A DNA stretch of 36,591 bases from an uncultured bacterium. Its GTDB lineage: Bacteria > DYJV01. The notes beneath the pieces are model-generated. The model was given only the letters and a program-made list of their open reading frames with translations, had not been told where the DNA came from and did not search any database. Shown here one piece after another: positions 6,806 through 33,441 of the stretch; positions within the stretch are counted from its first letter, which is position 1, and each line of letters begins with the position of its first letter. The DNA is taken from positions 1 to 36,591 of the forward strand of contig CAZIZE010000028.1 in the NCBI GenBank assembly GCA_964543655.1, in the 5' to 3' direction. The position numbers were made by a program, and so were the translations under genes.

Positions 6806-6836
6806 CTATCTTCCCCTAAAAATTATTTAAATTATA

Positions 6837-12805: not shown

Positions 12806-13798
12806 TTAGTTGGTTGGCTTAAAACCAAACTTTTTAGGTCTAACATATTTATCAATTAGAGGTGTTACAGAGTTCATCAATAATATTGCAAATGAAACAC
12901 CTTCTGGATATCCACCCCACAACCTTATTACAGCAGTTAATAAACCACAACCTATACCAAAGATTATCATACCTTTCTCTGTAATAGGTGATGTAACCAT
13001 ATCTGTAGCCATAAAAAAAGCACCAAGCATTAAGCCTCCTGATAAAATATGATAAATTGGATTTATATAAACCTGTGGATTAATTGCCCACATAATTCCT
13101 GTAACAAGAAAAACAGTTGCTATAAAAGATACCGGTATATGCCACCTTACATAACCTCTGTAAATCAAATATAAACCACCTGCTATTAATGCAAGTGCTG
13201 AAACTTCACCAATACAACCACCTGTATTACCAATAAGTAAATCAAAAATAGAGTAAGCTTTTGCGTGTATAATTTTACCATGCAGCATAACCTCTTCTTT
13301 AACAAGACCAAGAGGTGTTGCCTCTGTAACAATATCTGGATGCCAAAAACTCCCTGCAAGAACAGGTTTCATCCATTTGGTCATTTGAACTGGAAATGAA
13401 ATAAGTAGAAACACCCTTGCTACAAGAGCTGGATTAAAAAGATTATGTCCAAGCCCACCAAAAACCTGCTTGGCTATTACAATTGCAACAAAACTACCAA
13501 CCAATGCAACCCACCAGGGTGAAGCAGCAGGTAAATTAAGACCGAGCAACAATCCTGTAACAAGTGCGCTACCATCAAAAACAGAAATTTTTTGCTTAAA
13601 CAACTTCTGCCAGCCATATTCAATTGCCATAGAAAACACACAACATAAAACAACTACTTTAATTGCAGGAAAACCAAAAACATAAAAGCCTACAAGTGTT
13701 GCCGGCAGTAGTGCAATGATAACATTGTACATTATTATTGGAATACTTTCTCCACAATGAACATGAGGTGAAGAAGTTAATAATAGCTTTTTCTCCAT
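12806..13798 (-). CDS. rnfD: Rnf complex subunit D
   Basis: Start moved to ATG 13798 (MEKKLLLTSSPH; RBS aaggag). KQVFGGLGHNLFNPA, VTEATPL (FMN Thr), GCIGEVS, FMATD and YPEGVSFAILLMN. Confidence 0.96.
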   Translation of the reverse strand: MEKKLLLTSSPHVHCGESIPIIMYNVIIALLPATLVGFYVFGFPAIKVVVLCCVFSMAIEYGWQKLFKQKISVFDGSALVTGLLLGLNLPAASPWWVALVGSFVAIVIAKQVFGGLGHNLFNPALVARVFLLISFPVQMTKWMKPVLAGSFWHPDIVTEATPLGLVKEEVMLHGKIIHAKAYSIFDLLIGNTGGCIGEVSALALIAGGLYLIYRGYVRWHIPVSFIATVFLVTGIMWAINPQVYINPIYHILSGGLMLGAFFMATDMVTSPITEKGMIIFGIGCGLLTAVIRLWGGYPEGVSFAILLMNSVTPLIDKYVRPKKFGFKPTN

Positions 13799-13823
13799 TC
13801 CAACTCCTTTTATTTTTGGAAAT

Positions 13824-15158
13824 TTATTTATTCTGCTTTGCTCTCCTAATCTCCATAGCTTTAGCTTTACCAAGCTTAAACATATGCACAAGTGGCCTAT
13901 GTGCCGGGCAAACATATGAGCAACAACCACACTCTATACAATCAAGAACATCATTATTATCTGCCTCCTCAAATAAACCTTTTTCTATTAATATACTCAT
14001 AAAACTTGGAACAAGATTAGCTGGACATGCCCTCACACAAGAACCACAGCTAATACAGGCTGTGTATTCATACTCTTTTACAATGTCATCAGTAAAAGCA
14101 AGTATTCCAGATGTGCCTTTTGTAACCGGGATATCTAAGGTATATTGCGCAAAACCTGTCATAGGTCCACCAAATATTATCTTTTTTGGTGGCTTTTTAA
14201 ATCCTTCACAATTTGAAATCAAATGCGAAGCTAAAGTTCCTATTTTTACTTTAAAATTTTTTGGTTTTTTGATTGCTTCTCCTGAAACTGTTGTTATTCT
14301 TTCAATTAATGGTTTTCCAAATCTAACAGCCTCATAAATAGCTGCCACAGTACCAGCATTTTGTACCACTGCACCTACATGCATTGGAAGTCCACCAGAA
14401 GGCACTTCCCTATTTGTAATAGCTTTAATAAGTTGCTTTTCTCCACCTTGAGGATACTTAACAGGAAGCTCAACTACTTCAATTGGTTCATTCTCCACCA
14501 TTCGACCTATTCGCTCAATACAATCAGGCTTATTGCCCTCAATTGCAATAATACCTGAATCAACACCAAGAATCTTCATTACAATTTTAGCACCTTCTAT
14601 TATTTTTTCTGGCTCTTCAAGCATTAATCTATAATCAGCAGTTAAATAAAGCTCACACTCCACACCATTAACAATAAATGTATCTATTTTAAAATCAGGA
14701 GGTGGACTTAACTTAACATGAGTGGGAAAAGTAGCTCCTCCCATTCCAACTATTCCAGCATTTTGAATTATCTTCAAAAGCTCTTTTGGTTCTAAATCAA
14801 GATAATTCTCATGTTCAACAAAGTCAACACTCCTGTACTGACCATCATTTTCAATCTCTACCATTAAAGAAGGTACACCAAAAGGAGCAGAAATAAAGGT
14901 TGAAATCTTTCTAACTGTGCCAGATACAGAGCTATGCACCGGTGCTGACACAAAACCTCCTGCTTCACCAACAACCTGACCAACAAGTATATAATCACCT
15001 TCTTTAACAACTGCTTTTGCTGGTGCTCCAATATGCTGAGAAAGAGGGATTCTAACTATTTCTGGAGCATCAAGTTGCTCTATTCTACTATTTTTACTAA
15101 GCTCTTTTTTATCTTCTGGATGAACACCACCTTTAAATTCAAAAATTTCAATAGCCAT
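13824..15158 (-). CDS. rnfC: Rnf complex subunit C
   Basis: Start moved to ATG 15158 (MAIEIFEFKGGVHP). QHIGAP, GMGGATFPTHVK, NGVECELYLTAD, YPQGGEKQL, CISCGSCVRACP and CIECGCCSYVCP. Confidence 0.96.
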   Translation of the reverse strand: MAIEIFEFKGGVHPEDKKELSKNSRIEQLDAPEIVRIPLSQHIGAPAKAVVKEGDYILVGQVVGEAGGFVSAPVHSSVSGTVRKISTFISAPFGVPSLMVEIENDGQYRSVDFVEHENYLDLEPKELLKIIQNAGIVGMGGATFPTHVKLSPPPDFKIDTFIVNGVECELYLTADYRLMLEEPEKIIEGAKIVMKILGVDSGIIAIEGNKPDCIERIGRMVENEPIEVVELPVKYPQGGEKQLIKAITNREVPSGGLPMHVGAVVQNAGTVAAIYEAVRFGKPLIERITTVSGEAIKKPKNFKVKIGTLASHLISNCEGFKKPPKKIIFGGPMTGFAQYTLDIPVTKGTSGILAFTDDIVKEYEYTACISCGSCVRACPANLVPSFMSILIEKGLFEEADNNDVLDCIECGCCSYVCPAHRPLVHMFKLGKAKAMEIRRAKQNK

Positions 15159-15177
15159 GCAAAGCTCTCCTGTTTTT

Positions 15178-16149
15178 TTACTGTAAAGTAATTGCTTCTT
15201 TTGGGCAATTTTGTTTACAAAGCCCACAGCCAAGGCATTTTTCCCTGTTTACAACGTGCACTTCTTTCAAATTACCACTAATTGCATTAACAGGGCAAAC
15301 TTTCTTACATTTACCACATCCAATACATTTATCTTTATCAATCATTGATTTAGGCTTATCTTTGTCATTAAAATCAACAATAACGCCAACAGGGCAGTTC
15401 TTGCTGCACAAACCGCAGTTAATACATTTATCAAAATCTATAACAGCAATGTTATCAACAACTTTAATTGCATTCACAGGGCAAACACGTTCACATTTAC
15501 CACAGCTGATACATCCAACAGAGCAAACCTTTTTAACCTTTGCACCTGTTTCTTTTGATGAGCATAATATTCTAACTTTTTTATTTACCGGCACAAGCTC
15601 TATTAAATTCCTTGGACAAACCTTTACACAATTACCACATCCAGTACATTTAGTCTCATCAACAACTGGAAGTCCAGACTCATCTATTTTAATTGCATCA
15701 AAAGGGCATACTTTTTCACAGGTACCAAGTCCAAAACATCCATAACTACAACCTTTATATCCACCACCAATAATTTGCGCCCCTCTACAATCATTAAACC
15801 CATTATATTCAAATTTTTTTACAACAATATCTTTACTACCTTTACATTTAACAAATGCAACTTTTCTAACACCAATGGAAACAGTTTTGCCCAAAATTTT
15901 AGCAACATTTACAATAGTCGCTTCATCAGCAGCAACACATCCATTTGGTTCTGCTTCACCTTTAACCACAGCTTCTGCAAAGTTAATACATCCTGCAAAA
16001 CCACATCCACCGCAATTTGCCTGTGGTAAAGCTTCATTTACTTCCTCAATTTTAGGATCTGTTTCAACTGCAAATACTTTAGAAGCAACACCAAGACCAA
16101 AACTTGCAATAACCCCAAGCAATCCTAAACAAAATATTGCATAAACCAT
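15178..16149 (-). CDS. rnfB: Rnf complex subunit B, long polyferredoxin form
   Basis: TM anchor, LPQANCGGCGFAGC, then six ferredoxin-type Cys motifs ending in CP. Confidence 0.95.
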   Translation of the reverse strand: MVYAIFCLGLLGVIASFGLGVASKVFAVETDPKIEEVNEALPQANCGGCGFAGCINFAEAVVKGEAEPNGCVAADEATIVNVAKILGKTVSIGVRKVAFVKCKGSKDIVVKKFEYNGFNDCRGAQIIGGGYKGCSYGCFGLGTCEKVCPFDAIKIDESGLPVVDETKCTGCGNCVKVCPRNLIELVPVNKKVRILCSSKETGAKVKKVCSVGCISCGKCERVCPVNAIKVVDNIAVIDFDKCINCGLCSKNCPVGVIVDFNDKDKPKSMIDKDKCIGCGKCKKVCPVNAISGNLKEVHVVNREKCLGCGLCKQNCPKEAITLQ

Positions 16150-18706: not shown

Positions 18707-19081
18707 ATGATTTTAAGCCTTAGAAAAAAAATGAAAGAGAAAAAAGGTTTTACCTTAATTGAATTATTGATTGTTGTTGCTATTATTGGTATTTTAGCTG
18801 CTATTGCTATTCCACAGTTCACAAAGTATAAAAAGAAAGCTGCTGCTGCTTCAGCACAAAGTGCAATTTCAAGTTGTATTAGTGAACTTGTTGCAACTTA
18901 TGCTGATAATTCAACACAAACCACTTGGACATGTTCTATTCCTAAAAGTAGTAATACTATAACTCTTACAATGAATGCATCTCAAGAGAAAGTTGCTGAT
19001 GTTTCAAGTACAACTATTACTGTTAGTGGTGTAGCAGTTACCTGCTCTGTTACTAACCAAGAAGTTTCATGCTCATATTAG
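18707..19081 (+). CDS. pilA: Type IVa major pilin
   Basis: Class III signal [27 protein letters not shown]; 110-aa mature pilin with four Cys; strong RBS aggaggg; followed by a terminator hairpin. Confidence 0.93.
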
Positions 19082-19084
19082 AAT

Positions 19085-20896
19085 ATGGAAAAATATTTAA
19101 AAAAAGAGGGAGTCCATCCCTCTTTTTTTTTGGCTATTTTTATAATCTACATACTTTTTCTTCCACCTAACATTACAACAGGAGATTGTGGAGAATTAAT
19201 TACTGCGTCATACCTGCTTGGATTAGCTCATCCTTCTGGTTACCCTCTTTATCTGATTTTAATGAAGCTATTTATTACTATTTTACCAATTGGCAGCATT
19301 CCTTTTAAATGTTCTCTTTTTACTGCTATTTTTTCTGTTATATCATTATATTTTGTGTATCTAATTTTAACTGAAATTACAGATGAAAAAAGTAATCTTT
19401 CTTTATTTGCCATTATCTCTATTGCTTTTTCATATAGTTATTTTAATCAATCTTTATTGGTAAAATTCTATACTTTAAATCTTTTTATTATTTTAACTTT
19501 AATATATCTATCTTTAAAATTAATAAAATCTTACAATAGAAAAATATTGTTTTTAATATTTTTTATTTTTGGAATTACAACTGGCAATCATCACACAGCT
19601 CTACTATTGTCAATTCCATTTCTCATTATTTTATTCAAATACAGAGGTAAAATAAAAGATATTTTCATAGGCTCCTTTTTTCTAATTTATGGATTTCTCA
19701 TAAACTCTTATATTTATACAGTTAGTTTTAAAAAATTTTATTTTAAATTTGTTCAAATAAATAATTTAAAAGACATTTTTAATCTATATTTATTACGAAA
19801 AGTTTATGGAAATATTAGCTCTACTTCATATATGGAAAAATTATTAGATTTTAAATTTTTCACTAATGCATTTAAAAATTATTATCTAATTTTGAAAACT
19901 AATTTTCCACACATACTTATACTACTCATTTTAATAATATTTGCAATCTACTTCCTTATAAAAAGTAAAAAATATGCTATTTTTCTTTTTATGCTCTGTT
20001 CCCTTTTTATTTATACCATAGGTCTTACTATTATGACATTTAGAGATACCTCTGATTTAAGCTTATATGTATACGCTCATCAATATTTTTTACCAGGAAA
20101 CACTCTCATTGTAATTCTGGCTGGAATAGGTTTAATCTATATATATAAAAAATTCTATTTTTTAAACAAGATTAAATACCTTATTATATTTTTTCCTTTA
20201 ATTTTATTCCCAGAAAGGTTTTATGACAGTTTATGGGCAACTAATTTGGTAGACTATGAGCATGGTAAAAATATTAATTTTCAACTACCAATAAATTCTT
20301 TTTACATAACCATAGGGGATATACCTACATTTGAAAGATTTTATCTTGAAAATATAGCAAATTTTCGAAGAGATGTTATAAATGTTATTTTAAAAAATAT
20401 CTCATCTGAAAATTGTATTATTTCAAGAATAACTATTAATAAAAAAAAATATTACTATAAAAGTTTTGATTCTGACTTTTTTTTTCAAACTATTTTAAAT
20501 TCAAATGTAAAAATATACTCAAATGCAATTAATAATTTTTCAAATTTTAAATTTAAGGACAAATTTAGTATTGAAAGAGATGGACTTTTATATATGCTAA
20601 AGGAAAAAATAGAAGCCCCTCTATACAAATTTTCTCCAGATTATTGTATTAATGAAAAAATTGAAGATTTTTTTAATGATAAAAATAGGAAAATTATGGT
20701 AACAAATAGTCATTTCAAATTTTTTAAATTTTTAGACCCGGTTCCATGTTTACAACATTACACTGATGACTATTTTTCGTATAAATTATGTATAGAAATG
20801 GCTTTGAAAGATAATTTTATGCCATTAATTACTCGTTCAAAAATTTTGAAATGGAATGACATTGAAAATTTATACATCTATGTTAAAACTCATTAA
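19085..20896 (+). CDS. DUF2723/TMEM260-like polytopic membrane glycosyltransferase (GT-C), putative protein O-mannosyltransferase
   Basis: First loop GDCGELITASYLLGLAHPSGYPLY matches the DUF2723 signature GD-x-GEL...HPxGYPLY; GNHH motif; about 10 hydrophobic segments; GD-x-x-x-F in the C-terminal soluble domain. Confidence 0.8.
   Translation: MEKYLKKEGVHPSFFLAIFIIYILFLPPNITTGDCGELITASYLLGLAHPSGYPLYLILMKLFITILPIGSIPFKCSLFTAIFSVISLYFVYLILTEITDEKSNLSLFAIISIAFSYSYFNQSLLVKFYTLNLFIILTLIYLSLKLIKSYNRKILFLIFFIFGITTGNHHTALLLSIPFLIILFKYRGKIKDIFIGSFFLIYGFLINSYIYTVSFKKFYFKFVQINNLKDIFNLYLLRKVYGNISSTSYMEKLLDFKFFTNAFKNYYLILKTNFPHILILLILIIFAIYFLIKSKKYAIFLFMLCSLFIYTIGLTIMTFRDTSDLSLYVYAHQYFLPGNTLIVILAGIGLIYIYKKFYFLNKIKYLIIFFPLILFPERFYDSLWATNLVDYEHGKNINFQLPINSFYITIGDIPTFERFYLENIANFRRDVINVILKNISSENCIISRITINKKKYYYKSFDSDFFFQTILNSNVKIYSNAINNFSNFKFKDKFSIERDGLLYMLKEKIEAPLYKFSPDYCINEKIEDFFNDKNRKIMVTNSHFKFFKFLDPVPCLQHYTDDYFSYKLCIEMALKDNFMPLITRSKILKWNDIENLYIYVKTH
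19099..19131 (+). terminator. Intrinsic terminator after pilA, overlapping the 5' end of the next ORF
   Basis: A7-GAGGGA-gtcca-TCCCTC-T9: a 6-bp stem flanked by A and T tracts. Confidence 0.8.
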
Positions 20897-21488
20897 AATA
20901 TTAATTTTAATTCTTTTAATTTTGATTGCAAGAGTATTTTTTGATGAACTTCGTTTCTACAATGAAGCTGAAAAATACTTTAATGAGAATAAAATATTAA
21001 TAGCAATTGATTATTACGAATTAGCAATAAATCAATATTTACCATTCTCTCCTATTGTAAAAAAAGCCACTTTAAACTTATTAAAAATTGGAGAAAATTT
21101 TGAAAAAAAGGGGAAATATAAAGAAGCTCTATATGCATTTGAAAATTTGAGAAGTGCTTTTTTACAAGCAAGAAGCTTTTACACTCCAAATAAAAATTTG
21201 ATTAAAGAATTAAATTATAAAATCGCTAATATTAAAACATTAATTCTTCAAAAAAAATTAAAGTGTAATAATTACAACACTTGTTTTAAGAAGGAGTTAG
21301 AAAATTTAAATTCTTTTAACAGTGAGGTATCTACCTTCTGGAGCTTTATTAGTTGTATATTCTTTTTATTATGGATATTTTCTGTACTTTTATTAATTTT
21401 TAATTTAAAAAGTATCAAACTTTTCTACTTAATTTTACTTAATATTTCTACTTTTTTATTATGGTTAATAACTCTGTATTTAACTTAA
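20880..21488 (+). CDS. Hypothetical membrane protein with TPR-like helical region
   Basis: Likely start ATG 20880 (MLKLIKIL). N-terminal TM segment, helical AEKYF..AIDYYELA..ALYAFENL pattern and two C-terminal TM segments. Confidence 0.7.
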   Translation: MLKLIKILILILLILIARVFFDELRFYNEAEKYFNENKILIAIDYYELAINQYLPFSPIVKKATLNLLKIGENFEKKGKYKEALYAFENLRSAFLQARSFYTPNKNLIKELNYKIANIKTLILQKKLKCNNYNTCFKKELENLNSFNSEVSTFWSFISCIFFLLWIFSVLLLIFNLKSIKLFYLILLNISTFLLWLITLYLT

Positions 21489-21532
21489 ATATATAGTTGA
21501 AAAAATTAATTTATAAAGTTATGGGTCATTTT

Positions 21533-22252
21533 ATGAAGACTCTTATAATATTACCTACGTATAATGAAGCAGAAAATATTGAAAAAATACTAAATTTAAT
21601 TTTAAAACATAACTTTGTTGAAATTCTTATAGTTGATGATAACTCAACTGATGGAACTAAGGAAAAAATAAAAAAAATTTTATCAAAAAGTAATAGAGTC
21701 AACTTAATAGAAAGACCATCAAAATTAGGTCTTGGTACAGCCTACAAAGAAGGTTTTAAGTGGGGACTTAATAGAGGTTATGAAATCTTTTTTGAAATTG
21801 ATGCTGATTTAAGCCATGACCCTGCTGAAATTCCCAATTTTATAAAAAAAATAGACGATGGTTTTGATGTTGTTGTAGGGTCAAGATATTTAAATGGTAC
21901 AATTAGCGTTGTTGGATGGGATTTTAAAAGATTACTGCTTTCCAAATTTGGCAATTTTTACGCATCAACTTTACTTAACTTAAAACAATTTACAGACCTA
22001 ACAAGTGGTTACAGATGTTATACTAAATATGCCCTTGAAAAAATAGATCTCGAAAATATAAATTCTAATGGTTACGCTTTTCAGATAGAAATGGTTTATC
22101 ATGCTTATAAAAATAATCTTAAGATTGCAGAGATACCGATTATTTTTTACGAAAGGGAAACTGGTGGCTCAAAAATGAGCTCTGAGATAGTAAGAGAGGC
22201 TATTTTTTTACCATTTAAATTAATGGGAAATACAATTTTTCGATTAAAATAA
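21533..22252 (+). CDS. Polyprenol-monophosphomannose synthase-like GT2 (Ppm1/DPM1 family)
   Basis: Start ATG 21533: MKTLIILPTYNE, VDDNSTDGT, GLGTAY, DADLSHDP, VGSRY, DLTSGYRCY, SNGYAFQIEM and ERETGGSKM. Confidence 0.88.
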   Translation: MKTLIILPTYNEAENIEKILNLILKHNFVEILIVDDNSTDGTKEKIKKILSKSNRVNLIERPSKLGLGTAYKEGFKWGLNRGYEIFFEIDADLSHDPAEIPNFIKKIDDGFDVVVGSRYLNGTISVVGWDFKRLLLSKFGNFYASTLLNLKQFTDLTSGYRCYTKYALEKIDLENINSNGYAFQIEMVYHAYKNNLKIAEIPIIFYERETGGSKMSSEIVREAIFLPFKLMGNTIFRLK

Positions 22253-22327: not shown

Positions 22328-23698
22328 CTATTTAACAATCTTAGGTGTAATAAATATTAAAAGTTCACCATTTGATCTTTGATTGATTTTATTTCTAAAG
22401 AGACCACCAAAAATCGGTATATCTCCAAACAATGGTACTTTTGTTTCACTTTTAGAATTAAAATTCTCCAATATTCCACCAATAACCGCTGTTTCACCAT
22501 CTTTAACAAGCAATTTTGTTGTTATCTCCTGTGTGTTAATTGATGGCTCACCATTAACAGTAATTTTACCAACACTATCTTTGGTTAAATGCACTTCAAT
22601 AGAAATAATACCATTTGCAGAAATATGAGGAGTAACTTCAAGTTTTAATTTCGCATCTTTAAATTGAGTTTCAGTACCAGCATCACTAACAGATTTGTAT
22701 GGAATCTCAACACCTTGCCCAATGCTTGCCTTTTCATTATTAAGAACAAGAACTTTTGGGCTTGAAATTACTTTGGCAAGATTTTTTGATTTCAAAGCTG
22801 TAAGCTTAAACGCAATATTATAAAAACCCCATTTCCCAAAAATCAAACCAATCCCACCAGCTGGTGCTGAAATTGTTGGTAGATTTACAATATAATCAGA
22901 GGGAATTGAAACTTCTTGCAAATTAGATGTTGAAGAAACACCAGAAGGTATAGCATTGGTTATTGAACCAGCACCTGGGAATTCTGAATTTATAGAAGGT
23001 GTAGTTGTTGTAGTTGTAGTTTCACCTGTTTCAGTATTAGAAGTATAACTTGTCCCTCCTTTTATTCCATAGAAAAAATTACTGGAACCTAATCTATCAA
23101 CATAAGAACCACCCCACTGGATTCCTAATTCTTTTGACGCATCACTATTCATAACAACAATTTTTGCTTCAATCATTACCTGTTTTGTAGGTTTATCTAC
23201 ATTTTTTATAAAATTTTCTATTTTTGAAATATTACCAATAAAATCCTGGACAAGAAGGCTGTTTGTCCTTGTATCTACTATAACTTTACCATCTTTTGAA
23301 AGTAAGTTTTGAACCTGCTCTTTAATATCCTCTGCTTTTGAAAAGTTTAAATAAAATATTTTGCTCTTTATATTCTCTTTTCCCTTAATTTTTTCAACAT
23401 TTTCCTTTTTATCAATAAATATAATGTTATCCTTGCAATAATAAGCATACCCTGAAATATTTGTAATTACTTTTAAAGCATCTTCAAAGGTCACATTATC
23501 AAGGTAAATTGTTACTTTTCCAGAAACAGAAGGAGGAATCACAACATTCTTCTTTAAATATCTTGCAAGATTGATTATTATATCATGAATATCCACATTC
23601 TTTAAATTTAGAGAAATTCTTTTATTGTTTACAGAATTTCCCCATAAATTTAATGAAAATAAAAAGATAAAAAATAGTATAAAGATTTTAGTTTTCAA
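22328..23698 (-). CDS. pilQ: Type IV pilus secretin (short PilQ type, no AMIN domains)
   Basis: Signal peptide; N0 and N3 domains (VDTRTNSLLV); KQVMIEAKIV..ELGIQWG, EIPY, LKLEVTPHI, DGETAVIGG, KVPLFGDIP and ELLIFITPKIV. Confidence 0.9.
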   Translation of the reverse strand: MKTKIFILFFIFLFSLNLWGNSVNNKRISLNLKNVDIHDIIINLARYLKKNVVIPPSVSGKVTIYLDNVTFEDALKVITNISGYAYYCKDNIIFIDKKENVEKIKGKENIKSKIFYLNFSKAEDIKEQVQNLLSKDGKVIVDTRTNSLLVQDFIGNISKIENFIKNVDKPTKQVMIEAKIVVMNSDASKELGIQWGGSYVDRLGSSNFFYGIKGGTSYTSNTETGETTTTTTTPSINSEFPGAGSITNAIPSGVSSTSNLQEVSIPSDYIVNLPTISAPAGGIGLIFGKWGFYNIAFKLTALKSKNLAKVISSPKVLVLNNEKASIGQGVEIPYKSVSDAGTETQFKDAKLKLEVTPHISANGIISIEVHLTKDSVGKITVNGEPSINTQEITTKLLVKDGETAVIGGILENFNSKSETKVPLFGDIPIFGGLFRNKINQRSNGELLIFITPKIVK

Positions 23699-24065
23699 TT
23701 TTCAACACTACCTTTCCTTTATTTATTAAATTTTGCAAAACAACTTTTTGCAAATCTATTGACAATACTTTATAATTACCAATTTTAGCACCTTTGGAAT
23801 AAGTATCTCCATTGAGAATTGCAAAAAACTTTTTATCTATTTTGAAAATAGCAGTTAATTTTAATAACTCTGCAACATTAACTTTTGGTTCGATTTTAAC
23901 TACATTTTCTATATGCTTCTCTTTAATTAAATTAAAACTTATATTAAAATAGTTAATATACTTTTTATTTGCTGGCATATTTAACCTTTCTATTATGCTA
24001 AACCCATAAATATTGGAACTAACAATTAAAATTAAAATACAAAACACTTTTAAACAAATCTTCAT
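23688..24065 (-). CDS. PilP/MshK-like pilus assembly protein
   Basis: Signal or TM segment followed by LKLTAI..AILNG..G.KIG.YKVLSI..VVL, a PilP/GspC-HR-like pattern; lies just before the secretin. Confidence 0.6.
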   Translation of the reverse strand: MKICLKVFCILILIVSSNIYGFSIIERLNMPANKKYINYFNISFNLIKEKHIENVVKIEPKVNVAELLKLTAIFKIDKKFFAILNGDTYSKGAKIGNYKVLSIDLQKVVLQNLINKGKVVLKIEN

Positions 24066-24077
24066 ATCTAAACTCTC

Positions 24078-24641
24078 TTAAGATATAATATAAACAAATT
24101 TGAAAATCATTTCAATTTTAAAAACATCTATATTTTTTTTAATATTTTTAATGTTATAACTTTCTATTGTTAGAAAATCTTGTCTATTTTCAATAATATC
24201 GAGCAGTGAAATAAAATTTTTTAAGGTTGCATCACCTTCAAATTTTAACAATACTTTTCCTCTCTTTTTTTCATACTGTTCTGAAATAAGCTCCATTTTA
24301 GTAAGATTCACATTGCTTTTCAATAGAATCTCTCTAACTGAGGTAATAATATCTCTTCTTGATTTGTTTTTTGTTTTTAAATACCCAATCTCATATTTTG
24401 TTTCCATTATTTTGTCTTTTATTAGTTGAATTTTTGTTAAAATATTTTTATGCTTATTAAATTCATGTATTAACATCTTTATTTTTCTATTCATTTTAAC
24501 AAGCTCTGCTTTTTCTCTTGAGATTTGATAATCAAAATTTTTATATATATGGTTATAAAAAGTAAAATTTATACCTGCAACTATTAAGATAAAGACAATA
24601 ATTATATGTGATAATTTCATGTTTGAAAAAAAGCCTGTCAT
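24078..24641 (-). CDS. PilO/MshJ-like inner-membrane assembly protein
   Basis: TM segment, coiled coil and ferredoxin-like C-terminal pattern (LKFEG..NFISLLDIIEN); synteny. Confidence 0.65.
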   Translation of the reverse strand: MTGFFSNMKLSHIIIVFILIVAGINFTFYNHIYKNFDYQISREKAELVKMNRKIKMLIHEFNKHKNILTKIQLIKDKIMETKYEIGYLKTKNKSRRDIITSVREILLKSNVNLTKMELISEQYEKKRGKVLLKFEGDATLKNFISLLDIIENRQDFLTIESYNIKNIKKNIDVFKIEMIFKFVYIIS

Positions 24642-25201
24642 GCTATTTCCTTTAAAGATAAACTGATTTTAAAATCAAAGTTTTTTAATTTATCTTTTTG
24701 CTCCAAATAATAAAAAGTAACTTTTTTAATTAAATTGTTATCATTTAAATTTGTATAAAAATGGTAAAAAGCATCTGCTGAAACTGCTTTACCTTTTATT
24801 ATAAATTTACCATTTGCATAATCTAAATAAGTAATTCTAATCCCTTTAGCTATATTATTTGCAAGAACCATAAAAGATAAAAATGATGAATATTTGCTAC
24901 TATTGCTAATATAGTAAAGCTCCTTTTTCTTATTAAGGTAATTTAATTTTTTTAAAAGTTCTTTATATTGGTTATGAAATGTTTTAAAGTTATGCACAAG
25001 AATAGAAATTTTCTTTAGTTTCTCCCTTTGCTCTGATAATTTATCATTTAAAAAACTTTTTTCTAATGTAAAATTAAAAGTAACCAACAGTAAAAAAATA
25101 ATATTAAAAATTAGTACAATTAATAACCTTTTTATAAGAAAATGCCTATTCACATCAAATATTACATTATCTGGCAAAAGGTTTAATTCTTTCTTTCTCA
25201 T
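24638..25201 (-). CDS. PilN-like assembly protein
   Basis: ELNLLP motif, TM segment, coiled coil, and IKGKA..FYTNL. Confidence 0.75.
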   Translation of the reverse strand: MRKKELNLLPDNVIFDVNRHFLIKRLLIVLIFNIIFLLLVTFNFTLEKSFLNDKLSEQREKLKKISILVHNFKTFHNQYKELLKKLNYLNKKKELYYISNSSKYSSFLSFMVLANNIAKGIRITYLDYANGKFIIKGKAVSADAFYHFYTNLNDNNLIKKVTFYYLEQKDKLKNFDFKISLSLKEIA

Positions 25202-26148
25202 ACTTCCCTCAACGACGTTCCAAGAATTTCTTGTAAATATGTAAGTTGCTCTACTTTTTCAACATCGGTATTTAAAACAAATTGCTTTAAACCATTGAAT
25301 GTTTCAGAGTCAATCATAAATAATTGAGATAAATAATTTTCTATTCCCTTTATGTTCAAAAATTTTCCAGTAATAATAATTTTTGAAATTGGTTTATTTC
25401 TAAATTGTGCATTGTAAAAATCTATTGTTCTCTGTAACTCTATGGTAAATTTATCAAGAGCTTCTGTTAATGGAAAATTTTCAAAGTTTAAATTTTCTAA
25501 AATTTTTGACTCATCAATTTTGCTCTTTTCATATAGAAAGTTTAAAATATTTTTAAAACCAAAATTCAATTCTCTAAATGTAAAGAGAAGTTCATTATAC
25601 ATTACTATAAAAATTGTTTTATCATCACGCAAATGAATATTCATTACTATCTGGTCTTTAAATTTTGAATTTACAAGCCTTTTTAAAGCAATAATATCAA
25701 CTTCTAAAAATAGAAGTTTATATTTAAGTGATTTAAAGTTTCTAAGAATTGAATCAAGAAAAATTTTATTAACTCCAGCTATGAAAACTATTATTTTCTC
25801 TTTAAAGTTATATGTTTCAAAATCAATATAATATTCATTTAAAGAAATATCAAAAGTTGTCCTGAATCTATTTAAAACTTCCAGTTTTAAATTTGCCACC
25901 TCATTTTGCTCTATTATAAATTGATATTTTAAAACATTGTCATTTATAATATTTAATTTGGTTAGTTTATAATTTTTTACTTTCTGAGAGATTTCCTTTA
26001 ATGCATTGTTAATACTTGTTTTGTCAAAAATATTTATAAAAAATTTAGAACAATCCTCTATAATCACTTCATTTTTCTTTACCGTATAAATAATGTGATT
26101 AATCTCTGAATCACTTAAAATAATGGTATTAATTTTGTTTTGTCTCAT
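25198..26148 (-). CDS. PilM/MshI-like cytoplasmic assembly protein (degenerate actin-like fold)
   Basis: YYIDF, EVDIIALKR and ELQRTIDFY..ISKIIITG match PilM-type patterns; start at ATG 26148. Confidence 0.75.
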   Translation of the reverse strand: MRQNKINTIILSDSEINHIIYTVKKNEVIIEDCSKFFINIFDKTSINNALKEISQKVKNYKLTKLNIINDNVLKYQFIIEQNEVANLKLEVLNRFRTTFDISLNEYYIDFETYNFKEKIIVFIAGVNKIFLDSILRNFKSLKYKLLFLEVDIIALKRLVNSKFKDQIVMNIHLRDDKTIFIVMYNELLFTFRELNFGFKNILNFLYEKSKIDESKILENLNFENFPLTEALDKFTIELQRTIDFYNAQFRNKPISKIIITGKFLNIKGIENYLSQLFMIDSETFNGLKQFVLNTDVEKVEQLTYLQEILGTSLREV

Positions 26149-26839
26149 AGCTCTCAATTAAATATATTTTATTGTAAATTCTTTTTTTTAATAAAGGATC
26201 TTTAACAAGATTGAATGATTTTCTATAATATTTCAATGAATCTTTTATATCTCCTATATTTTCAAAAATAATTGCTCTGTTATATGCTGTCTCAAAGTTA
26301 TCATCTTTAATTTTATTATAAATAGTGATTGCTTTGGAATAATCACCTTTCTCATAATAAGCATTGGCAAGGTATGATATAACATCTCTATCATACTTAT
26401 ATTTTTTTAGATAAAGAGAAAGATTTTTAATTGCTTGATTATACAATTTCTTTTTATAACAAAGGATTCCAAAATATTTTAAATATATCTTTTTATTTTT
26501 CATTTTATTTAAAAAATTGCTCAACTCATTAAAATTATTCATTATAAGATAATATTTTAACTTTATTTCATTAATATCTGAGCTTTCACTCTTTTTAAAT
26601 TTATTTAAAGTATTATAATAAATCTTTTCATACTGGTGGATGTTAAAATTTGTCATATTTTGGCCTGTTTTAAAAAAGATATAATAATTTACTCCAAAAA
26701 CAAGTAATAATATTGCAAAAAATATTATAATTATGTAAAAGCCAAACCTAAAATATTGCAAATTATCAGTGTCAGACTTTCGAATGCTCCTTTTTTTACT
26801 AATATTTTTTAATGGTTTGTTTAAAATATTCATCATCAT
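26129..26839 (-). CDS. Membrane-anchored TPR protein (MshN-like)
   Basis: One TM segment, then TPR motifs (YLANAYYEKGDYSKAITIY, YNRAIIFENIGD..SLKYYRKS). Confidence 0.65.
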   Translation of the reverse strand: MMMNILNKPLKNISKKRSIRKSDTDNLQYFRFGFYIIIIFFAILLLVFGVNYYIFFKTGQNMTNFNIHQYEKIYYNTLNKFKKSESSDINEIKLKYYLIMNNFNELSNFLNKMKNKKIYLKYFGILCYKKKLYNQAIKNLSLYLKKYKYDRDVISYLANAYYEKGDYSKAITIYNKIKDDNFETAYNRAIIFENIGDIKDSLKYYRKSFNLVKDPLLKKRIYNKIYLIESYETKQN

Positions 26840-26848
26840 ATCTAAAAA

Positions 26849-27229
26849 TTATCTCCAGAATTTTAAAAAAATTCTCCTTTTTACATTAAAAATACTACCT
26901 GTTGAATAAATAGAAAAAATCTCTTTACCATCTGGTGTATCTGCAATTTTTTTAAAATTTACCTCAGCTTTGTAGTTCTTTGCATCATTAAAAGTATAAA
27001 TCCTGCTTCCATTTGAAATATCCCCTTCAAGAGCCTCTCTTATTCTAATTTCAGCACCACTTTCTGCTACAAATAAACATTGCAATGAGAGTAAATTTTC
27101 AGAAGAAGTAATTGACGATGTACTCAACATAGAGACAATTGAAACACCAAGAGCGCTAAATATAACCATTAAAATCAATGCATAAGCCAGCATAAATCCC
27201 CTTTTACATCCTGATAATTTATGGAACAT
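26849..27229 (-). CDS. MshP/PilX-like minor pilin
   Basis: KRG|FMLAYALILMV (no E5), CLFVAESGAE and IYSTG..VKRRI; start at ATG 27229. Confidence 0.75.
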   Translation of the reverse strand: MFHKLSGCKRGFMLAYALILMVIFSALGVSIVSMLSTSSITSSENLLSLQCLFVAESGAEIRIREALEGDISNGSRIYTFNDAKNYKAEVNFKKIADTPDGKEIFSIYSTGSIFNVKRRIFLKFWR

Positions 27230-27953
27230 TTCTAAAATGCACCTCATGTTTATATTTCAATGTAACATCGTTTTTTTTTAATGTTAATGCAATTTTCAAT
27301 ATTCCATCTCTCTTTATTGTACCAGGAAAATATTGAAAAGAAACATTATCCACAAAATTTGTCATAATATTGCATGTACCTGAATCTTCACCATTTGAAT
27401 TATCTATTTCATAGCCAAAACAACGAGTTAATTTATCTTCATATTGGTAAATAGTAACAGGAGTATCAACAAGATAGCATCTATTGTATGGTGAATCTTC
27501 TAAAATTGCTTTATCAAATGTCAAAGTCCAGCTATTAGAATTTTTTGTAATGCTTCTAATTGTATAAAGTTTCTGAGAATTATAATTTGAAGTAAAAATA
27601 TCTGAATACGACAAAATATATATTGCTATCTTTTTCCCTTCTAAGTTTAAATTACTGAGGTTATCATATACATTAATTGCATTGGAGCCTGCTCTTTCAT
27701 AAAAAAAACTTTTTGAAAAAAGCAAATATTGCAACAAATTATTTTCTGTTCTTATTGAATTAGGTACAGCATTGTGCAATTCTTTATCCATCCTTTCAAT
27801 TGTAAAATTAATTTCATTGTAAAGTAATGTTTTTACTTTTGTATCGGAATATCCATAAAAAACATTATAAATAATATTTACACCTATTCCAGACACTATT
27901 GCAAAAATAACTATTACAATAATTAATTCTACCAATGTAAAACCTTTTTTCAC
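27219..27953 (-). CDS. MshO-like minor pilin
   Basis: GTG start; KKG|FTLVELIIVIV; ERMDKELHNAVPNSIR and terminal EVHFRNVP are typical of MshO. Confidence 0.82.
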   Translation of the reverse strand: MKKGFTLVELIIVIVIFAIVSGIGVNIIYNVFYGYSDTKVKTLLYNEINFTIERMDKELHNAVPNSIRTENNLLQYLLFSKSFFYERAGSNAINVYDNLSNLNLEGKKIAIYILSYSDIFTSNYNSQKLYTIRSITKNSNSWTLTFDKAILEDSPYNRCYLVDTPVTIYQYEDKLTRCFGYEIDNSNGEDSGTCNIMTNFVDNVSFQYFPGTIKRDGILKIALTLKKNDVTLKYKHEVHFRNVP

Positions 27954-27966
27954 TTTTTAATACCTT

Positions 27967-28503
27967 CTAAAAATTTGCTTTAACAGCAATTAATTTGTAA
28001 CTATCTTTTAATCCTTGACCAGTAACAAATATTTGGATTAATTTATAATTTGTTTTTGAAGAAATATTTTCAAAAACTTTGTTACCAACAACTTTAGCAT
28101 AACTAACTATAATTTTAATATCAAATCCATCTGTCAGCCCAAAATCACTGCTTTTCCATGTACCTGTTTTTACATATGCATTGCCACTGTTTACAAAATC
28201 ATCAACATCATCAAAGTCATCTATTGATGTCTCTCCAGCTTCTGGACCTATATTAGACAACACTGGATTACACTCAGTTAAAATATTCTCACAACCACCA
28301 TTTGGAGTATTCTCATCCCACTTTTTACTGTAAACAACTTCCATTACAGATTGTAAAACTTTAATTGCTCTATTTTGTATTACAGGATCACTTGTCCTTC
28401 CCAATGTATTGTAGTAAAGAGTTAATACACCAAATATCCCCAATGAAAAAACAACAATAAAAAGTATCATTTCTATTAAAGTAAAACCCCTTTTACTGTT
28501 CAT
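27967..28503 (-). CDS. MshD-like minor pilin
   Basis: KRG|FTLIEMILFIVV; SDPV..RA..QSVMEV.SKKWDEN, FDDVDDF and terminal KANF are typical of MshD. Confidence 0.82.
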   Translation of the reverse strand: MNSKRGFTLIEMILFIVVFSLGIFGVLTLYYNTLGRTSDPVIQNRAIKVLQSVMEVVYSKKWDENTPNGGCENILTECNPVLSNIGPEAGETSIDDFDDVDDFVNSGNAYVKTGTWKSSDFGLTDGFDIKIIVSYAKVVGNKVFENISSKTNYKLIQIFVTGQGLKDSYKLIAVKANF

Positions 28504-28942
28504 AAATTCCACCTGAATAAGGTTCTATTATTATAATTTGAGAATCTATATTTATCTTTATCTCAGTGGTAATAAGACTATTTGATGCAGTAACAGGTCT
28601 CCCAAGATAATCAAAATAAAATTCATTCATAGTTGATGATATTGAAGTATTTACTGACACTGGATTGTCTCCTCCTGGTATTCTGGGTAAACTATTTTTA
28701 TCATCAGAATCATTATCTAAAATATATTGTTTAGCCCCTGAATTAATAATAATTCTCCAATTATTCCCTGTAACCATTGATTCTTGCTGAGCATACCGTG
28801 CGTAAGATATAAAAGAGTCAGCATCAGCTATGCTTTTAAATCCCTTCATTCCTATTTTGGGCACTATTGCCATTGACACAATAGCAATCAAAGCCAAAAT
28901 AATTAAAATTTCAACTAATGTAAAACCCTGCTCTTTTCTCAT
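28493..28942 (-). CDS. MshC/FimT-like minor pilin
   Basis: QG|FTLVEILII; RYAQQESM, FDYLGRP and IEPYSGGI. Confidence 0.8.
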   Translation of the reverse strand: MRKEQGFTLVEILIILALIAIVSMAIVPKIGMKGFKSIADADSFISYARYAQQESMVTGNNWRIIINSGAKQYILDNDSDDKNSLPRIPGGDNPVSVNTSISSTMNEFYFDYLGRPVTASNSLITTEIKINIDSQIIIIEPYSGGIYEQ

Positions 28943-33435: not shown

Positions 33436-33441
33436 TTTTAC

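Follow-up and report, generated by a model that had tools for sequence, protein, structure and literature searches.

A recurrent pilin-linked gene cassette with a bacterial relative of TMEM260 most likely sugar-coats the pilus

What do the products of three genes packed directly behind a type IV pilin gene do, and is the pilin their target? The window, that is the whole analyzed stretch of 36,591 nucleotides from an uncultured bacterium, was originally predicted to carry a pilin O-mannosylation cassette of four co-directional genes at 18707-22252, and ORF calls and family scans confirmed this layout (Table 1). As predicted, 3 nt separate the pilin stop codon from the ATG of the GT-C gene. The start of the third gene, g3, overlaps the GT-C gene end by 41 nt, or by 17 nt if an alternative ATG at 20880 is used. 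An alternative start of the GT2 gene, the ATG at 21521, gives the 243-aa form present in the public protein collection and is likely the start. The cassette converges with a cluster of pilus machinery genes, in which the PilM, PilN, PilO and PilP candidates gave no Pfam match at 1e-5; a Pfam scan found no flippase among the window ORFs.

Table 1. Features of the pilin cassette and the convergent pilus cluster
Feature	Position	Strand	Remarks
Pilin gene (type IV prepilin)	18707-19081	+	124 aa
GT-C gene (TMEM260-like/DUF2723)	19085-20896	+	603 aa
Hairpin and T-run	19099-19129	+	within codons 5-15 of the GT-C ORF
g3 gene (membrane protein)	20856-21488	+	210 aa
GT2 gene (DPMS/Ppm-like)	21497-22252	+	251 aa from TTG start
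Convergent type IV pilus machinery cluster	22328-36366	-	context
PilQ-P-O-N-M	22328-26157	-	PilQ by TIGR02515 (1.9e-102); others by gene order and size only
TPR protein	within 22328-36366	-	listed between PilQ-P-O-N-M and the minor-pilin-like genes
Four minor-pilin-like genes	26849-28942	-	Pfam scan of window ORFs
DUF6701/LamG MshQ-like protein	28939-33435	-	Pfam scan of window ORFs
PilC	33442-34677	-	Pfam scan of window ORFs
PilB-type ATPase	34678-36366	-	Pfam scan of window ORFs

The GT-C protein matched PF11028 (TMEM260-like, DUF2723; 1.8e-21; 77.1 bits, cut-off 24.2), the Pfam family of human TMEM260 (PDB 9rql, 9rqm, 9rqn; PMC10214176; 10.64898/2026.03.17.711096), and its ORF contains the predicted motif TTGDCGELITASYLLGLAHPSGYPLY. 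In the same scan PMT_2 reached 25.8 bits, slightly below its cut-off of 26.1, and neither a Wzy_C match nor a MIR domain was found. The protein alone aligned with TMEM260 (9rql) over residues 13-432 (E=2.9e-25); the family profile did so over positions 7-573, including the TMEM260 Rossmann-like domain (E=1.8e-94), and beyond TMEM260 it found no PDB sequence with E<0.2. A transmembrane core (approximately residues 1-385) is followed by a periplasmic domain aligning with that Rossmann-like domain, with no fused TPR domain. The GT-C fold was confirmed in the AF2 model (pLDDT 84.9, pTM 0.90), for which all 19 Foldseek matches at E<=0.001 were GT-C enzymes (STT3, PglB, AglB, ArnT or ALG9). Judged by sequence, this bacterial protein is related to human TMEM260, a protein O-mannosyltransferase.

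Functional residues were mapped from the alignment with 9rql, and their conservation was counted in 55 aligned homologues. The functions of TMEM260 D52, H67, R264, Y267, R355 and D441 are taken from a preprint, in which D441, located in the protein-binding Rossmann-like domain, is the catalytic base activating the acceptor hydroxyl (10.64898/2026.03.17.711096). Five of the six are kept in the window protein, including the base: D34 (=D52) and H49 (=H67) are present in 55/55 homologues, D412 (=D441) in 54, R238 (=R264) in 49 and Y241 (=Y267) in 44. The D34A mutant suggested in the original prediction is thus the exact counterpart of inactive TMEM260 D52A. The sixth residue, the mannose-contacting R355, is Gln in the window protein and in 27/27 cassette-clade proteins, which leaves room for a sugar other than mannose.

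We then surveyed 80 related loci, drawn from 501 relatives, for a prepilin gene on the same strand and within 600 nt of the GT-C gene. Such linkage was found in 24 loci versus approximately 2.4 expected (background about 0.03 per locus), that is about 10 times background, and in two separate clades, bearing out the predicted recurrence. In a relationship tree, built with FastTree only, the window's GT-C falls into a clade of 19 rows with 100% local support, which spans Aquificota, Nitrospirota, Methylomirabilota, Campylobacterota and Thermodesulfobacteriota. Among the 18 loci of this clade, 15 have an adjacent pilin, two lack upstream sequence and one has none; in the second clade (12 rows, mostly CPR-type genomes) a pilin is adjacent in six. 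Where two pilins are present (L007, L009, L010, L014 and L062), the last 4 nt of the second overlap the GT-C start; these overlaps are from Aquificaceae. No adjacent pilin was found in 56/80 loci, including all 25 rows of a clade of mostly Acidobacteriota and Myxococcota, and the DUF2723 family overall is therefore not pilin-specific. The arrangement of pilin, GT-C, g3 and GT2 nevertheless recurs far above chance across several bacterial phyla.

The GT2 protein (PF00535, 6e-28) comprises just the catalytic domain and lacks a TM domain. Its closest solved relative is the P. furiosus Dol-P-Man synthase 5mlz (2.2e-29, residues 12-243, DAD motif aligned), and homologues at 62-70% identity are named 'polyprenol monophosphomannose synthase' by NCBI. 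Sequence comparison thus suggests that it is a polyprenol-phosphate hexose synthase of the DPMS/Ppm1/DPM1 type, and with this the predicted identities of pilin, GT-C and GT2 are all borne out by profile scans and PDB matches. The choice of mannose was not established: besides the Gln in place of R355, the GT2, whose NCBIfam matches include AglJ (1.1e-22) and PgfS (4.3e-15), scored far below every equivalog cut-off there. Near-orthologous GT2 genes (E<1e-50) are present in 16/80 loci, all within the window's clade and hence in 16 of its 18 loci; in L005, one of the other two, the sequence ends just past the g3 start. The GT2 family is much wider than the cassette (7998/8000 scored candidates at E<=0.001), and so the enzyme may also serve other pathways.

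In the g3 protein an N-terminal anchor helix leads into a helical-hairpin domain (about 130 aa, predicted periplasmic), and two TM helices form the C-terminus. The original label 'TPR-like' fits its shape (AF2 model, pLDDT 94) but does not hold as a family assignment, as the Pfam scan gave sub-threshold TPR-type matches only (SNAP 0.0067, BamD 9e-4); the fold had no match in the PDB at E<=0.001. The family has no Pfam entry and 1277 relatives at E<=0.001, the best 150 of which are all stand-alone. It is encoded in 20/80 related loci and in 19/19 rows of the window's clade, in most loci with its start overlapping the GT-C stop; three g3-bearing loci (L037, L054, L073) have no adjacent pilin. 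Complex prediction for g3 and GT-C scored 0.85 (runs 0.86, 0.85 and 0.85) against 0.00 for the best control, with at least 89% common contacts between runs and partner pLDDT of at least 85. In calibration the score mark was reached by 116/157 solved complexes and 2/215 mismatched pairs, counts that apply only roughly here because author-built alignments were used. The predicted interface places conserved g3 motifs (residues 59-63 and 93-109) against GT-C residues 64-74 and 421-430. No homology was detected by hhalign between g3 and the fused C-terminal/TPR regions of other family members (probability 2%). The modelling thus predicts g3 to be a partner subunit of the transferase.

Pilin-adjacent proteins with no modifying activity are known, for example TfpY and TfpZ (PMC11841053), and GT-C and g3 could likewise be non-catalytic factors for pilus assembly or stability, with the GT2, whose family is widespread beyond the cassette, being an unrelated housekeeping enzyme. 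We consider this highly improbable, given that the catalysis-essential residues of TMEM260 are all conserved except R355, that the near-orthologous GT2 accompanies nearly all loci of the clade, and that the topology of g3 is unlike that described for TfpX/Y/Z (three N-terminal TM helices and a beta domain).

Other glycosyltransferase genes accompany the cassette in relatives. In 6/6 relatives with an intervening gene that were scanned, g3 and GT2 are separated by a GT4 or GT9, and some relatives also carry Wzx flippases or methyltransferases; the window therefore represents a minimal version. The single added sugar of the original prediction was accordingly not established. LPS and polysaccharide loci typically carry GT9 (heptosyltransferase-family) genes and Wzx flippases, and the GT2 and GT-C could decorate lipid A, O-antigen or another envelope glycan, lying beside the pilin only through clustering of surface genes. 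The same two-enzyme logic is seen in GtrB with the Gtr GT-C, ArnC with ArnT, and CsbB with YfhO; ArnC (1e-9) and GtrB (sll0501, 4e-6) are among the PDB matches of the GT2, as is ArnT among the GT-C fold matches. This reading is nonetheless improbable: by far the nearest homologue of the GT-C is a protein O-mannosyltransferase, the acceptor-activating acid D412 is almost invariant, and pilins are linked to the gene in two separate clades.

The pilin carries the prepilin signature (PF07963 N_methyl, 5.7e-10; TIGR02532, 5.5e-10) with the cleavage motif KG|FTLIELL, a mature length of 110 aa and four Cys; a strong Shine-Dalgarno sequence, AAGGAGGG, lies immediately upstream of its gene. Ser and Thr make up 28% of the mature protein and 36% of its globular part, whereas the 35 other window ORFs reach 16% at most (median 10%). 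Gene linkage makes it the proposed glycosylation acceptor. Beginning 18 nt past the pilin stop is a GC-rich hairpin, GAGGGA-GTCCA-TCCCTC, with an A-run on one side and a T-run on the other. It sits inside the first GT-C codons and was absent from the original prediction. The RNA of 19082-19140 folds with -17.1 kcal/mol (z = -3.4, 0/200 shuffles as good); a terminator-like scan assigned the hairpin to the - strand, owing to its palindromic sequence. In 12/16 cassette sources a similar hairpin lies behind the first pilin (0/20 shuffles as good). We read the element as a putative leaky terminator or attenuator that would hold expression of the genes behind it well under that of the pilin. Pseudomonas pilin-accessory cassettes are described with the same layout, a terminator past pilA damping expression of the accessory genes (PMC11841053).

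The GT-C and g3 could instead modify many exported proteins, the pilin being the most abundant or one co-encoded client. Broad spectra are reportedly common among bacterial O-glycosylation systems (PMC9239064), and the many DUF2723 loci without a pilin would fit, as would the minor pilins and PilQ of the window, next in Ser/Thr content at 14-16%. Moreover, the cassette-linked pilins are of at least two structural types (six Cys versus none) and share neither a conserved Ser/Thr site nor a sequon, which argues for loose acceptor rules; nothing like the IPT sequon of TMEM260 clients was found among them, the window's pilin included. Such a general system is nevertheless unlikely, if less so than a glycan acceptor: pilin adjacency is tight in the window and in Aquificaceae, the pilin-terminator-accessory architecture is a signature of dedicated pilin accessory genes, and TMEM260 itself is described as highly client-specific (PMC10214176).

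Overall, the cassette most likely sugar-coats the pilus, and the probable route suggested by the sequence data is a dedicated O-glycosylation of the pilin in the periplasm, with polyprenol-phosphate hexose as donor and a GT-C/g3 complex as transferase. The soluble GT2 would move a hexose from a nucleotide sugar to polyprenol (undecaprenyl) phosphate on the cytoplasmic side of the inner membrane, and the lipid-phosphate sugar would then reach the periplasmic face; no flippase was identified for this step in the window. By homology, the transmembrane core of the GT-C would bind the donor via D34, H49, R238 and Y241, and D412 in the periplasmic Rossmann-like domain would act as the base in an inverting transfer to Ser/Thr hydroxyls in the globular domain of a pilin still held by its inner-membrane anchor. 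Modelling predicts g3 as a stoichiometric membrane subunit, whose periplasmic helical domain, in analogy to the TPR 'fingers' of TMEM260, may help in recruiting or positioning the pilin. The leaky terminator would hold the enzymes well below pilin levels. As the window is a minimal version, a monosaccharide is the simplest product; relatives with added GT4/GT9 genes, in some cases with Wzx and methyltransferases, probably transfer short or decorated glycans. These added genes and the predicted role of g3 as a GT-C subunit go beyond the original prediction.

Protein O-mannosylation is known from actinobacterial Pmt (GT39) with Ppm1 and from yeast Pmt1/Pmt2, and an aspartate in the first extracytoplasmic loop of Pmt is essential. 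There, a polyprenol-P-mannose synthase of the GT2 type supplies the donor with which a GT-C O-glycosylates exported proteins at Ser/Thr, a division of labour like that proposed for the window; Pmt, however, is a different GT-C family with many Sec substrates and no pilin linkage. In Neisseria (PglL), Pseudomonas (TfpO) and Acinetobacter (TfpO/PglL) pilin Ser/Thr are likewise glycosylated in the periplasm, and tfpO lies directly 3′ of pilA, but these Wzy_C enzymes move undecaprenyl-pyrophosphate-linked oligosaccharides en bloc, and the lack of such a domain in the window scan agrees with the distinct route originally predicted. In the archaeal AglJ/AglB Dol-P pathway a lipid-monophosphate-charging GT2 starts a route whose last enzyme, a GT-C-type transferase, modifies a surface protein; AglB makes N-linkages, in contrast to the O-linkage proposed here. 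In Haloferax the lipid-monophosphate sugar is extended by further cytoplasmic GTs, which would explain the GT4/GT9 genes of the relatives. Streptococcus mutans Pgf (PgfS GT2 with PgfM membrane proteins; see PMC5856776) probably follows a comparable logic.

TMEM260 is alignable with the window's GT-C over both the transmembrane core and the Rossmann-like domain, and the neighboring DPMS-like GT2 points to a similar donor, a lipid-monophosphate monosaccharide. Its TPR domain is fused, whereas the separate g3 is predicted to bind; it acts in the ER on IPT domains of plexin, cMET and RON (PMC10214176), whereas the acceptor here would be a membrane-anchored periplasmic pilin. The P. aeruginosa group IV cassette pilA-tfpW-tfpX, as described (10.1101/2020.04.19.049825, PMC11841053), resembles the system proposed for the window in its polyprenol-phosphate monosaccharide donor, in the attenuating terminator past pilA and in the 11 TM helices and periplasmic C-terminal domain of TfpW; its proposed role is phage and immune shielding. 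TfpW is described with a DDX motif and a fused TPR and as adding D-arabinofuranose oligomers, which needs DprE1/DprE2 genes encoded elsewhere. The window shows neither the motif nor the fused TPR nor arabinose genes, and has GDCGE in loop 1 and a hexose-type GT2 within the cassette, in keeping with the predicted distinction from TfpW. In line with the original prediction, we found no bacterial DUF2723 protein characterised in the literature searched. If the proposed reading is true, the cassette would represent a pilin-dedicated O-glycosylation built around a bacterial TMEM260-family GT-C.

The original prediction had described four tightly packed co-directional genes, with the gene for a TMEM260-like glycosyltransferase (GT-C) beginning 3 nt after the pilin stop codon. 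ORF calls and the sequence itself bore this arrangement out; the coordinates are collected in the table below. The gene for g3, the membrane protein encoded between GT-C and a polyprenol-phosphate sugar synthase-like enzyme (GT2), overlaps the end of the GT-C gene by 41 nt; with the ATG at 20880 as its start, the overlap would shrink to 17 nt. A public protein collection includes a 243-aa form of GT2, which makes the ATG at 21521 the probable start of translation. Upstream of the cassette lie an acyl-CoA synthetase gene, rnf genes and nuo genes. The MshQ-like protein encoded downstream combines beta-helix, LamG and DUF6701 domains, and, from its place amid minor pilins, the type IV pilus system may be MSHA-like and have a large component serving as tip or adhesin.

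Coordinates of features in the window and in related loci (L numbers, from the survey of GT-C neighbourhoods)
Feature	Source	Coordinates	Strand	Evidence or position
Type IV prepilin, 124 aa	window	18707-19081	+	ORF call, PF07963, TIGR02532
GT-C, 603-aa multi-pass membrane protein	window	19085-20896	+	ORF call
g3, 210-aa membrane protein	window	20856-21488	+	ORF call
GT2, 251 aa	window	21497-22252	+	ORF call
Type IV pilus machinery: PilQ-P-O-N-M, minor pilins, MshQ-like DUF6701 protein, PilC, PilB-type ATPase	window		- (converging)	downstream of cassette
MshQ-like protein, 1498 aa	window	28939-33435	-	among minor pilins
NuoL-like ORF	window	3-1757	-	
nuo operon	window	4121-8777	-	
Split NuoG-like subunit, two ORFs	window	5753-6805, 4121-5704	-	nuo operon
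646-aa ORF	window	6837-8777	-	nuo operon
RnfC-like ORF	window	13824-15233	-	first-start-codon call
RnfD-like ORF	window	12806-13930	-	first-start-codon call
Wzx/MOP-type flippase	L006	10385-12016		beyond GT2
Wzx/MOP-type flippase	L011	10379-11953		beyond GT2
SAM methyltransferase	L007	10172-11955		beyond GT2
SAM methyltransferase	L012	10336-11331		beyond GT2
Additional GT4	L007	10172-11955		beyond GT2
Additional GT4	L030	10238-11356		beyond GT2
Additional GT2 + GT4	L062	10098-12136		beyond GT2
PIN-domain gene	L008	8828-9250		between g3 and GT9 gene
Locus with order GT2, GT-C, g3	L073	4810-5898		
Locus with order GT2, GT-C, g3	L037	5121-5876		

The first gene of the cassette has a strong Shine-Dalgarno sequence and encodes a protein with the cleavage motif KG/FTLIELL. 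The Gly-1/Phe+1/Glu+5 motif, a hydrophobic N-terminal helix, a small globular domain and the pilus machinery nearby identify it as a type IV prepilin with a class III signal peptide. Serine and threonine together make up 28% of the mature pilin and 36% of the part outside the N-terminal helix; across the other 35 ORFs of the window the median share is 10% and the highest 16%. A hairpin (GAGGGA-GTCCA-TCCCTC) between an A-run and a T-run starts 18 nt past the pilin stop codon, inside the first codons of GT-C. Its fold energy is -17.1 kcal/mol, and none of 200 shuffled sequences was as good. From its size, its strong ribosome-binding site and this putative terminator we infer that the protein is a 'major' pilin. 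A scan for sigma-70-like promoters (37 sites against 29.4 +/- 5.9 in shuffled sequences) was uninformative in this AT-rich DNA. One conserved glycosylation sequon was also considered and rejected: when the window pilin was aligned with 23 pilins of g3-bearing loci, no conserved Ser/Thr column was found outside the N-terminal region.

Some features of the window away from the cassette were also recorded. In the first 1100 nt (1-1100), the GC content stays at 0.46-0.50 until about position 1000 and then falls to about 0.29 within about 100 nt, inside a single NuoL-like ORF; this step could be a chimeric assembly join or have arisen when a homologue of higher GC recombined with the gene. Two things set the nuo operon apart: its NuoG-like subunit is split, and an ORF with a NuoF-type 4Fe-4S region and a GltD-like pyridine-nucleotide-disulphide oxidoreductase is present where a NuoE/NuoF pair is expected. 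A search with NuoD gave relatives at 92-100% identity; of the hits bearing an organism name, the nearest ('Deltaproteobacteria', Syntrophobacteraceae MAGs) reach 68% identity at most. The RnfC-like and RnfD-like ORFs (12806-15233) overlap by 107 nt as called, and the RnfD start is probably further downstream.

GT-C matched PF11028 (TMEM260-like, formerly DUF2723) over residues 34-189 (E=1.8e-21), its 77.1 bits lying well above the model's cut-off of 24.2. When it was compared with all PDB sequences by phmmer, the sole match was human TMEM260 (9rql; 2.9e-25, residues 13-432 against 31-461). A profile of 25 bacterial homologues matched the same entry at 1.8e-94 (positions 7-573 against 31-609), with nothing else below E=0.2. 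The homology spans the transmembrane core and the Rossmann-like domain and extends beyond the N-terminal motif. An AlphaFold2 model built from a 55-sequence alignment had a pLDDT of 84.9 and a pTM of 0.90. Foldseek comparison of this model with the PDB gave 19 matches at E<=0.001, all of them GT-C enzymes (STT3, PglB, AglB, ArnT, ALG9), with query-normalised TM-scores of 0.38-0.49; no TMEM260 entry was among the matches listed.

According to a 2026 preprint on the structure of TMEM260 (10.64898/2026.03.17.711096), D52, H67, Y267 and R355 touch the mannose and R264 the phosphate, D441 in the luminal Rossmann-like domain is the catalytic base, and the C-terminal TPR domain is necessary and sufficient for acceptor peptide binding. 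The corresponding residues of the window GT-C were read from the phmmer alignment and their conservation was counted over 55 aligned homologues. D52 and H67 correspond to D34 and H49, both conserved in 55 of 55 sequences, R264 to R238 (49/55), Y267 to Y241 (44/55) and D441 to D412 (54/55; the two proteins share a G-D-x-P context here). R355, located in TM helix 10, corresponds to Q333; Gln occupies this position in all 27 cassette-clade rows (relatives grouping with the window GT-C) and Arg is found in 9 of the 28 others. No TPR Pfam hit was obtained for the window GT-C, in which the Rossmann-like region is followed by the C terminus at residue 603; TPR Pfam domains are present in some distant homologues (P0019, P0021). 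Overall, GT-C is a member of the TMEM260/DUF2723 family by sequence, fold and catalytic residues, and two features of TMEM260, R355 and the fused TPR, are absent from it. As a rival reading it might be a non-catalytic accessory of the pilus; we regard such a role as highly improbable.

GT2 matched PF00535 at 6e-28. Its nearest solved relative is the dolichol-phosphate mannose synthase of Pyrococcus furiosus (5mlz; 2.2e-29, residues 12-243), with DAD aligned on DAD, followed in the PDB by ArnC (1e-9) and GtrB (4e-6); the C-terminal membrane domain found in the 5mlz, ArnC and GtrB enzymes is absent from GT2. All NCBIfam matches fell far short of the equivalog cut-offs (AglJ 80.8 against 325, PpgS 72.2 against 370), and the NCBI annotation of homologues with 62-70% identity is the sole source of the name 'polyprenol monophosphomannose synthase'. 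Both enzyme assignments made in the original prediction have been upheld, that of a TMEM260/DUF2723-like GT-C by the PF11028 score, the 9rql match and the fold, and that of a Ppm1/DPM1-type GT2 by the PF00535 and 5mlz matches. Such a pair of enzymes might also act on an acceptor that is not a protein, as in Gtr, Arn or CsbB-YfhO systems; we consider this quite unlikely.

No Pfam family was found for g3. A profile of 19 members retrieved 1277 cluster representatives at E<=0.001 (HMMER), and a Rosetta-stone fusion of g3 to GT-C was rejected, the best 150 of these 1277 relatives all being stand-alone proteins of 118-280 aa. In the model of g3 (pLDDT 94), a long anchor helix at the N-terminus leads into helical hairpins, and two TM helices form the C-terminus. 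Foldseek gave no PDB match at E<=0.001; among the weak matches that ranked best, TPR proteins were in the majority. Family scans produced sub-threshold matches only (SNAP 0.0067, BamD 9e-4), and an Atlas cluster bears the automatic name 'Tetratricopeptide repeat protein family' (score 0.97). The possibility that g3 is a split-off fused TPR domain was rejected, since hhalign against the GT-C family alignment, TPR-bearing members included, gave a probability of 2%. As a functional analogy only, g3 may stand in for the TPR domain of TMEM260.

A complex of GT-C and g3 was predicted with each protein given as its own alignment. The median score, which expresses the confidence of the model, was 0.85 (runs 0.86, 0.85 and 0.85), against 0.00 for the best control. 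Of the pairs used for calibration, 116 of 157 solved complexes attained the mark, as did 2 of 215 mismatched pairs; these counts are a rough guide here as own alignments were used. The runs had at least 89% of contacts in common, with a partner pLDDT of at least 85. In the predicted interface the most conserved motifs of g3, YLPFS (59-63) and 93-109, lie on loop 64-74 and residues 421-430 of GT-C, the latter adjoining the invariant Y420, R428 and D430, and TM helices are also packed together in the model. No solved structure of such a complex, from which the model might have drawn its answer, is known to us. On this modelling, g3 is predicted to be a bound subunit of GT-C.

A survey of the linkage between DUF2723 and pilin genes had been proposed with the original prediction. 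Using one genome per species (185,579 species) we found 501 relatives of GT-C and examined the best 80 loci of these 501; neighbourhoods were counted with our own ORF and motif script and not from curated annotation. The best related locus has only 37% identity to the window GT-C. A same-strand prepilin ORF was found at most 600 nt from GT-C in 24 of the 80 loci, a denominator that includes 6 loci with less than 600 nt upstream and 10 with less than 600 nt downstream. For the background, flanking sequence at a distance of over 2 kb (395 kb in total) was used; it contained 20 prepilin-motif ORFs, about 0.03 per locus, so that about 2.4 of 80 were expected; the supposed linkage does recur among these best 80 loci. 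In the same set g3 is present in 20 loci and a near-orthologous GT2 (E<1e-50) in 16.

In an approximate tree (FastTree, 74 rows; 7 partial proteins of less than 500 aa were left out) the window's GT-C falls in a 19-row clade with 100% local support and with g3 in every row. This clade covers Aquificota, Nitrospirota, Methylomirabilota, Campylobacterota (Desulfurellales) and Thermodesulfobacteriota. A pilin is adjacent in 15 of its 18 loci; two lack upstream sequence (L003, L013) and one has none (L054). A separate 12-row clade, mostly of CPR-type genomes, has 6 pilin-adjacent members and neither g3 nor GT2 beside GT-C, and a 25-row clade, mostly of Acidobacteriota and Myxococcota, has none that are pilin-adjacent. 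Pilin adjacency is therefore confined to certain DUF2723 clades and does not mark the family as a whole. That the cassette belongs to a broader protein O-glycosylation system, with the pilin as one client, is in our judgement unlikely.

In 12 of 16 cassette sources, a GC-rich hairpin with a T-run lies behind the only pilin gene or the first of two, and none of 20 mononucleotide shuffles matched it; of the other four sources, 2 have a weaker hairpin and 2 have none. Two tandem six-Cys pilins lie upstream of GT-C in L005, L007, L009, L010, L014 and L062 (Aquificaceae-type, some Thermodesulfovibrio-type). There the hairpin and T-run come after the first pilin; the second, whose end overlaps the GT-C start by 4 nt, has no strong hairpin and is therefore expected at the low expression level of the enzymes. 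In a small separate clade of deltaproteobacterial-type MAGs (L073, L037) the nearest prepilin is 2.9-5.5 kb upstream, and GT2 of L073 is fused to a GtrA/DPMS transmembrane domain.

The related cassettes carry additional genes. The gene between g3 and GT2 encodes a cytoplasmic glycosyltransferase in all six relatives scanned, GT9 in L002, L008 and L013 and GT4 in L007, L011 and L030; the PIN-domain gene listed for L008 belongs to a Nitrospirota cassette. The genes found beyond GT2 imply lineage-specific glycans. Cytoplasmic GT-B enzymes cannot modify a periplasmic protein; on the simplest reading, therefore, the relatives extend the lipid-linked sugar before flipping. When 33 GT4/GT9 ORFs of relatives were compared by phmmer with the six-frame translation of the window, none matched at E<=0.01. 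The window likewise has none of the flippase, methyltransferase or extra-glycosyltransferase additions, and a Pfam scan of its ORFs revealed no other glycosyltransferases or flippases. To judge from this gene content, the window's version would transfer a single sugar.

The reading we prefer, and hold to be reasonably probable, is that the cassette is dedicated to O-glycosylation of the pilin by GT-C/g3 with a polyprenol-phosphate hexose. GT2 would load the hexose onto polyprenol phosphate in the cytoplasm, and the lipid-sugar would flip to the periplasmic face. Homology and conserved residues suggest that GT-C would hold the donor in its membrane core, with D412 of the periplasmic domain serving as the base for transfer to Ser/Thr of the pilin. 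By analogy with the TPR domain of TMEM260, g3, bound to GT-C in the model, may help in presenting the pilin while this is anchored in the membrane. Sub-stoichiometric levels of the enzymes would be ensured by the hairpin behind the pilin gene.

The closest system in its proposed working is pilA-tfpW-tfpX of Pseudomonas group IV. There, too, a GT-C is encoded next to the pilin and a small membrane protein serves as accessory, and the cassette would share with it the polyprenol-phosphate monosaccharide as donor and the terminator, a pilin-terminator-accessory design known from Pseudomonas (PMC11841053). TfpW is described in 10.1101/2020.04.19.049825 as dependent on D-Araf (DprE1/DprE2) genes and as carrying a DDX motif in its first periplasmic loop and a TPR domain fused at the C-terminus. 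Loop 1 of the window GT-C reads TTGDCGEL, with no DD, the protein has no TPR and the window has no DprE-type gene. No Wzy_C domain, as in PglL/TfpO, was detected in any of the four proteins (Pfam, E<=0.01). With regard to GT39 Pmt enzymes, PMT_2 scored 25.8 bits, slightly under the cut-off of 26.1, and there was no MIR hit. GT-C is accordingly neither of the PglL/TfpO type nor a GT39 Pmt. The proposal of a route distinct from PglL/TfpO/TfpW is sustained in part: the cassette lacks Wzy_C and also the DDX motif, fused TPR and arabinose genes of the published TfpW description.

On bacterial relatives of TMEM260, PMC10214176 mentions only 'distant homologs in bacteria'. The literature searched contained no characterised bacterial DUF2723 member or pilin link, and nothing relevant on pili or pilin glycosylation in Aquificae or Hydrogenobacter. 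Glycosylation of pilin by a GT-C that depends on a lipid-phosphate sugar is known; what would be new here, as the genes suggest, is a different enzyme family, a partner subunit and modular glycan genes.

We also put forward, tentatively and as possible rather than probable, a wider proposal: an ancient, previously unrecognised two-subunit O-glycosylation machine, in which a TMEM260-family GT-C and g3, replacing the TPR 'fingers' in trans, would act on type IV pilins with polyprenol-monophosphate sugars. In relatives with GT4/GT9, Wzx and methyltransferases it would be an O-OTase for monophosphate-linked oligosaccharides. With it, PglL/TfpO and TfpW would be joined by a third class of bacterial O-OTase, and the TMEM260 pathway of humans would have its prokaryotic root here.

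Not until 2023 was TMEM260 identified as a protein O-mannosyltransferase; in humans its loss leads to a congenital heart and kidney syndrome. For its bacterial relatives no substrate was found in the literature searched, and the cassette offers the pilin as a candidate natural substrate, together with a donor enzyme and a partner subunit that had not been expected. All of these are also present in culturable, non-pathogenic thermophiles, e.g. Hydrogenobacter; H. thermophilus TK-6 has a DUF2723 protein (P0014). If confirmed, this would be a third enzyme family for pilin O-glycosylation and would show how a separate subunit can take over recognition of the acceptor from a fused TPR domain. It would also provide a compact three-gene glycoengineering system, and insight into shielding of the pilus (from phages or proteases) or its heat stabilisation in deep-branching lineages.
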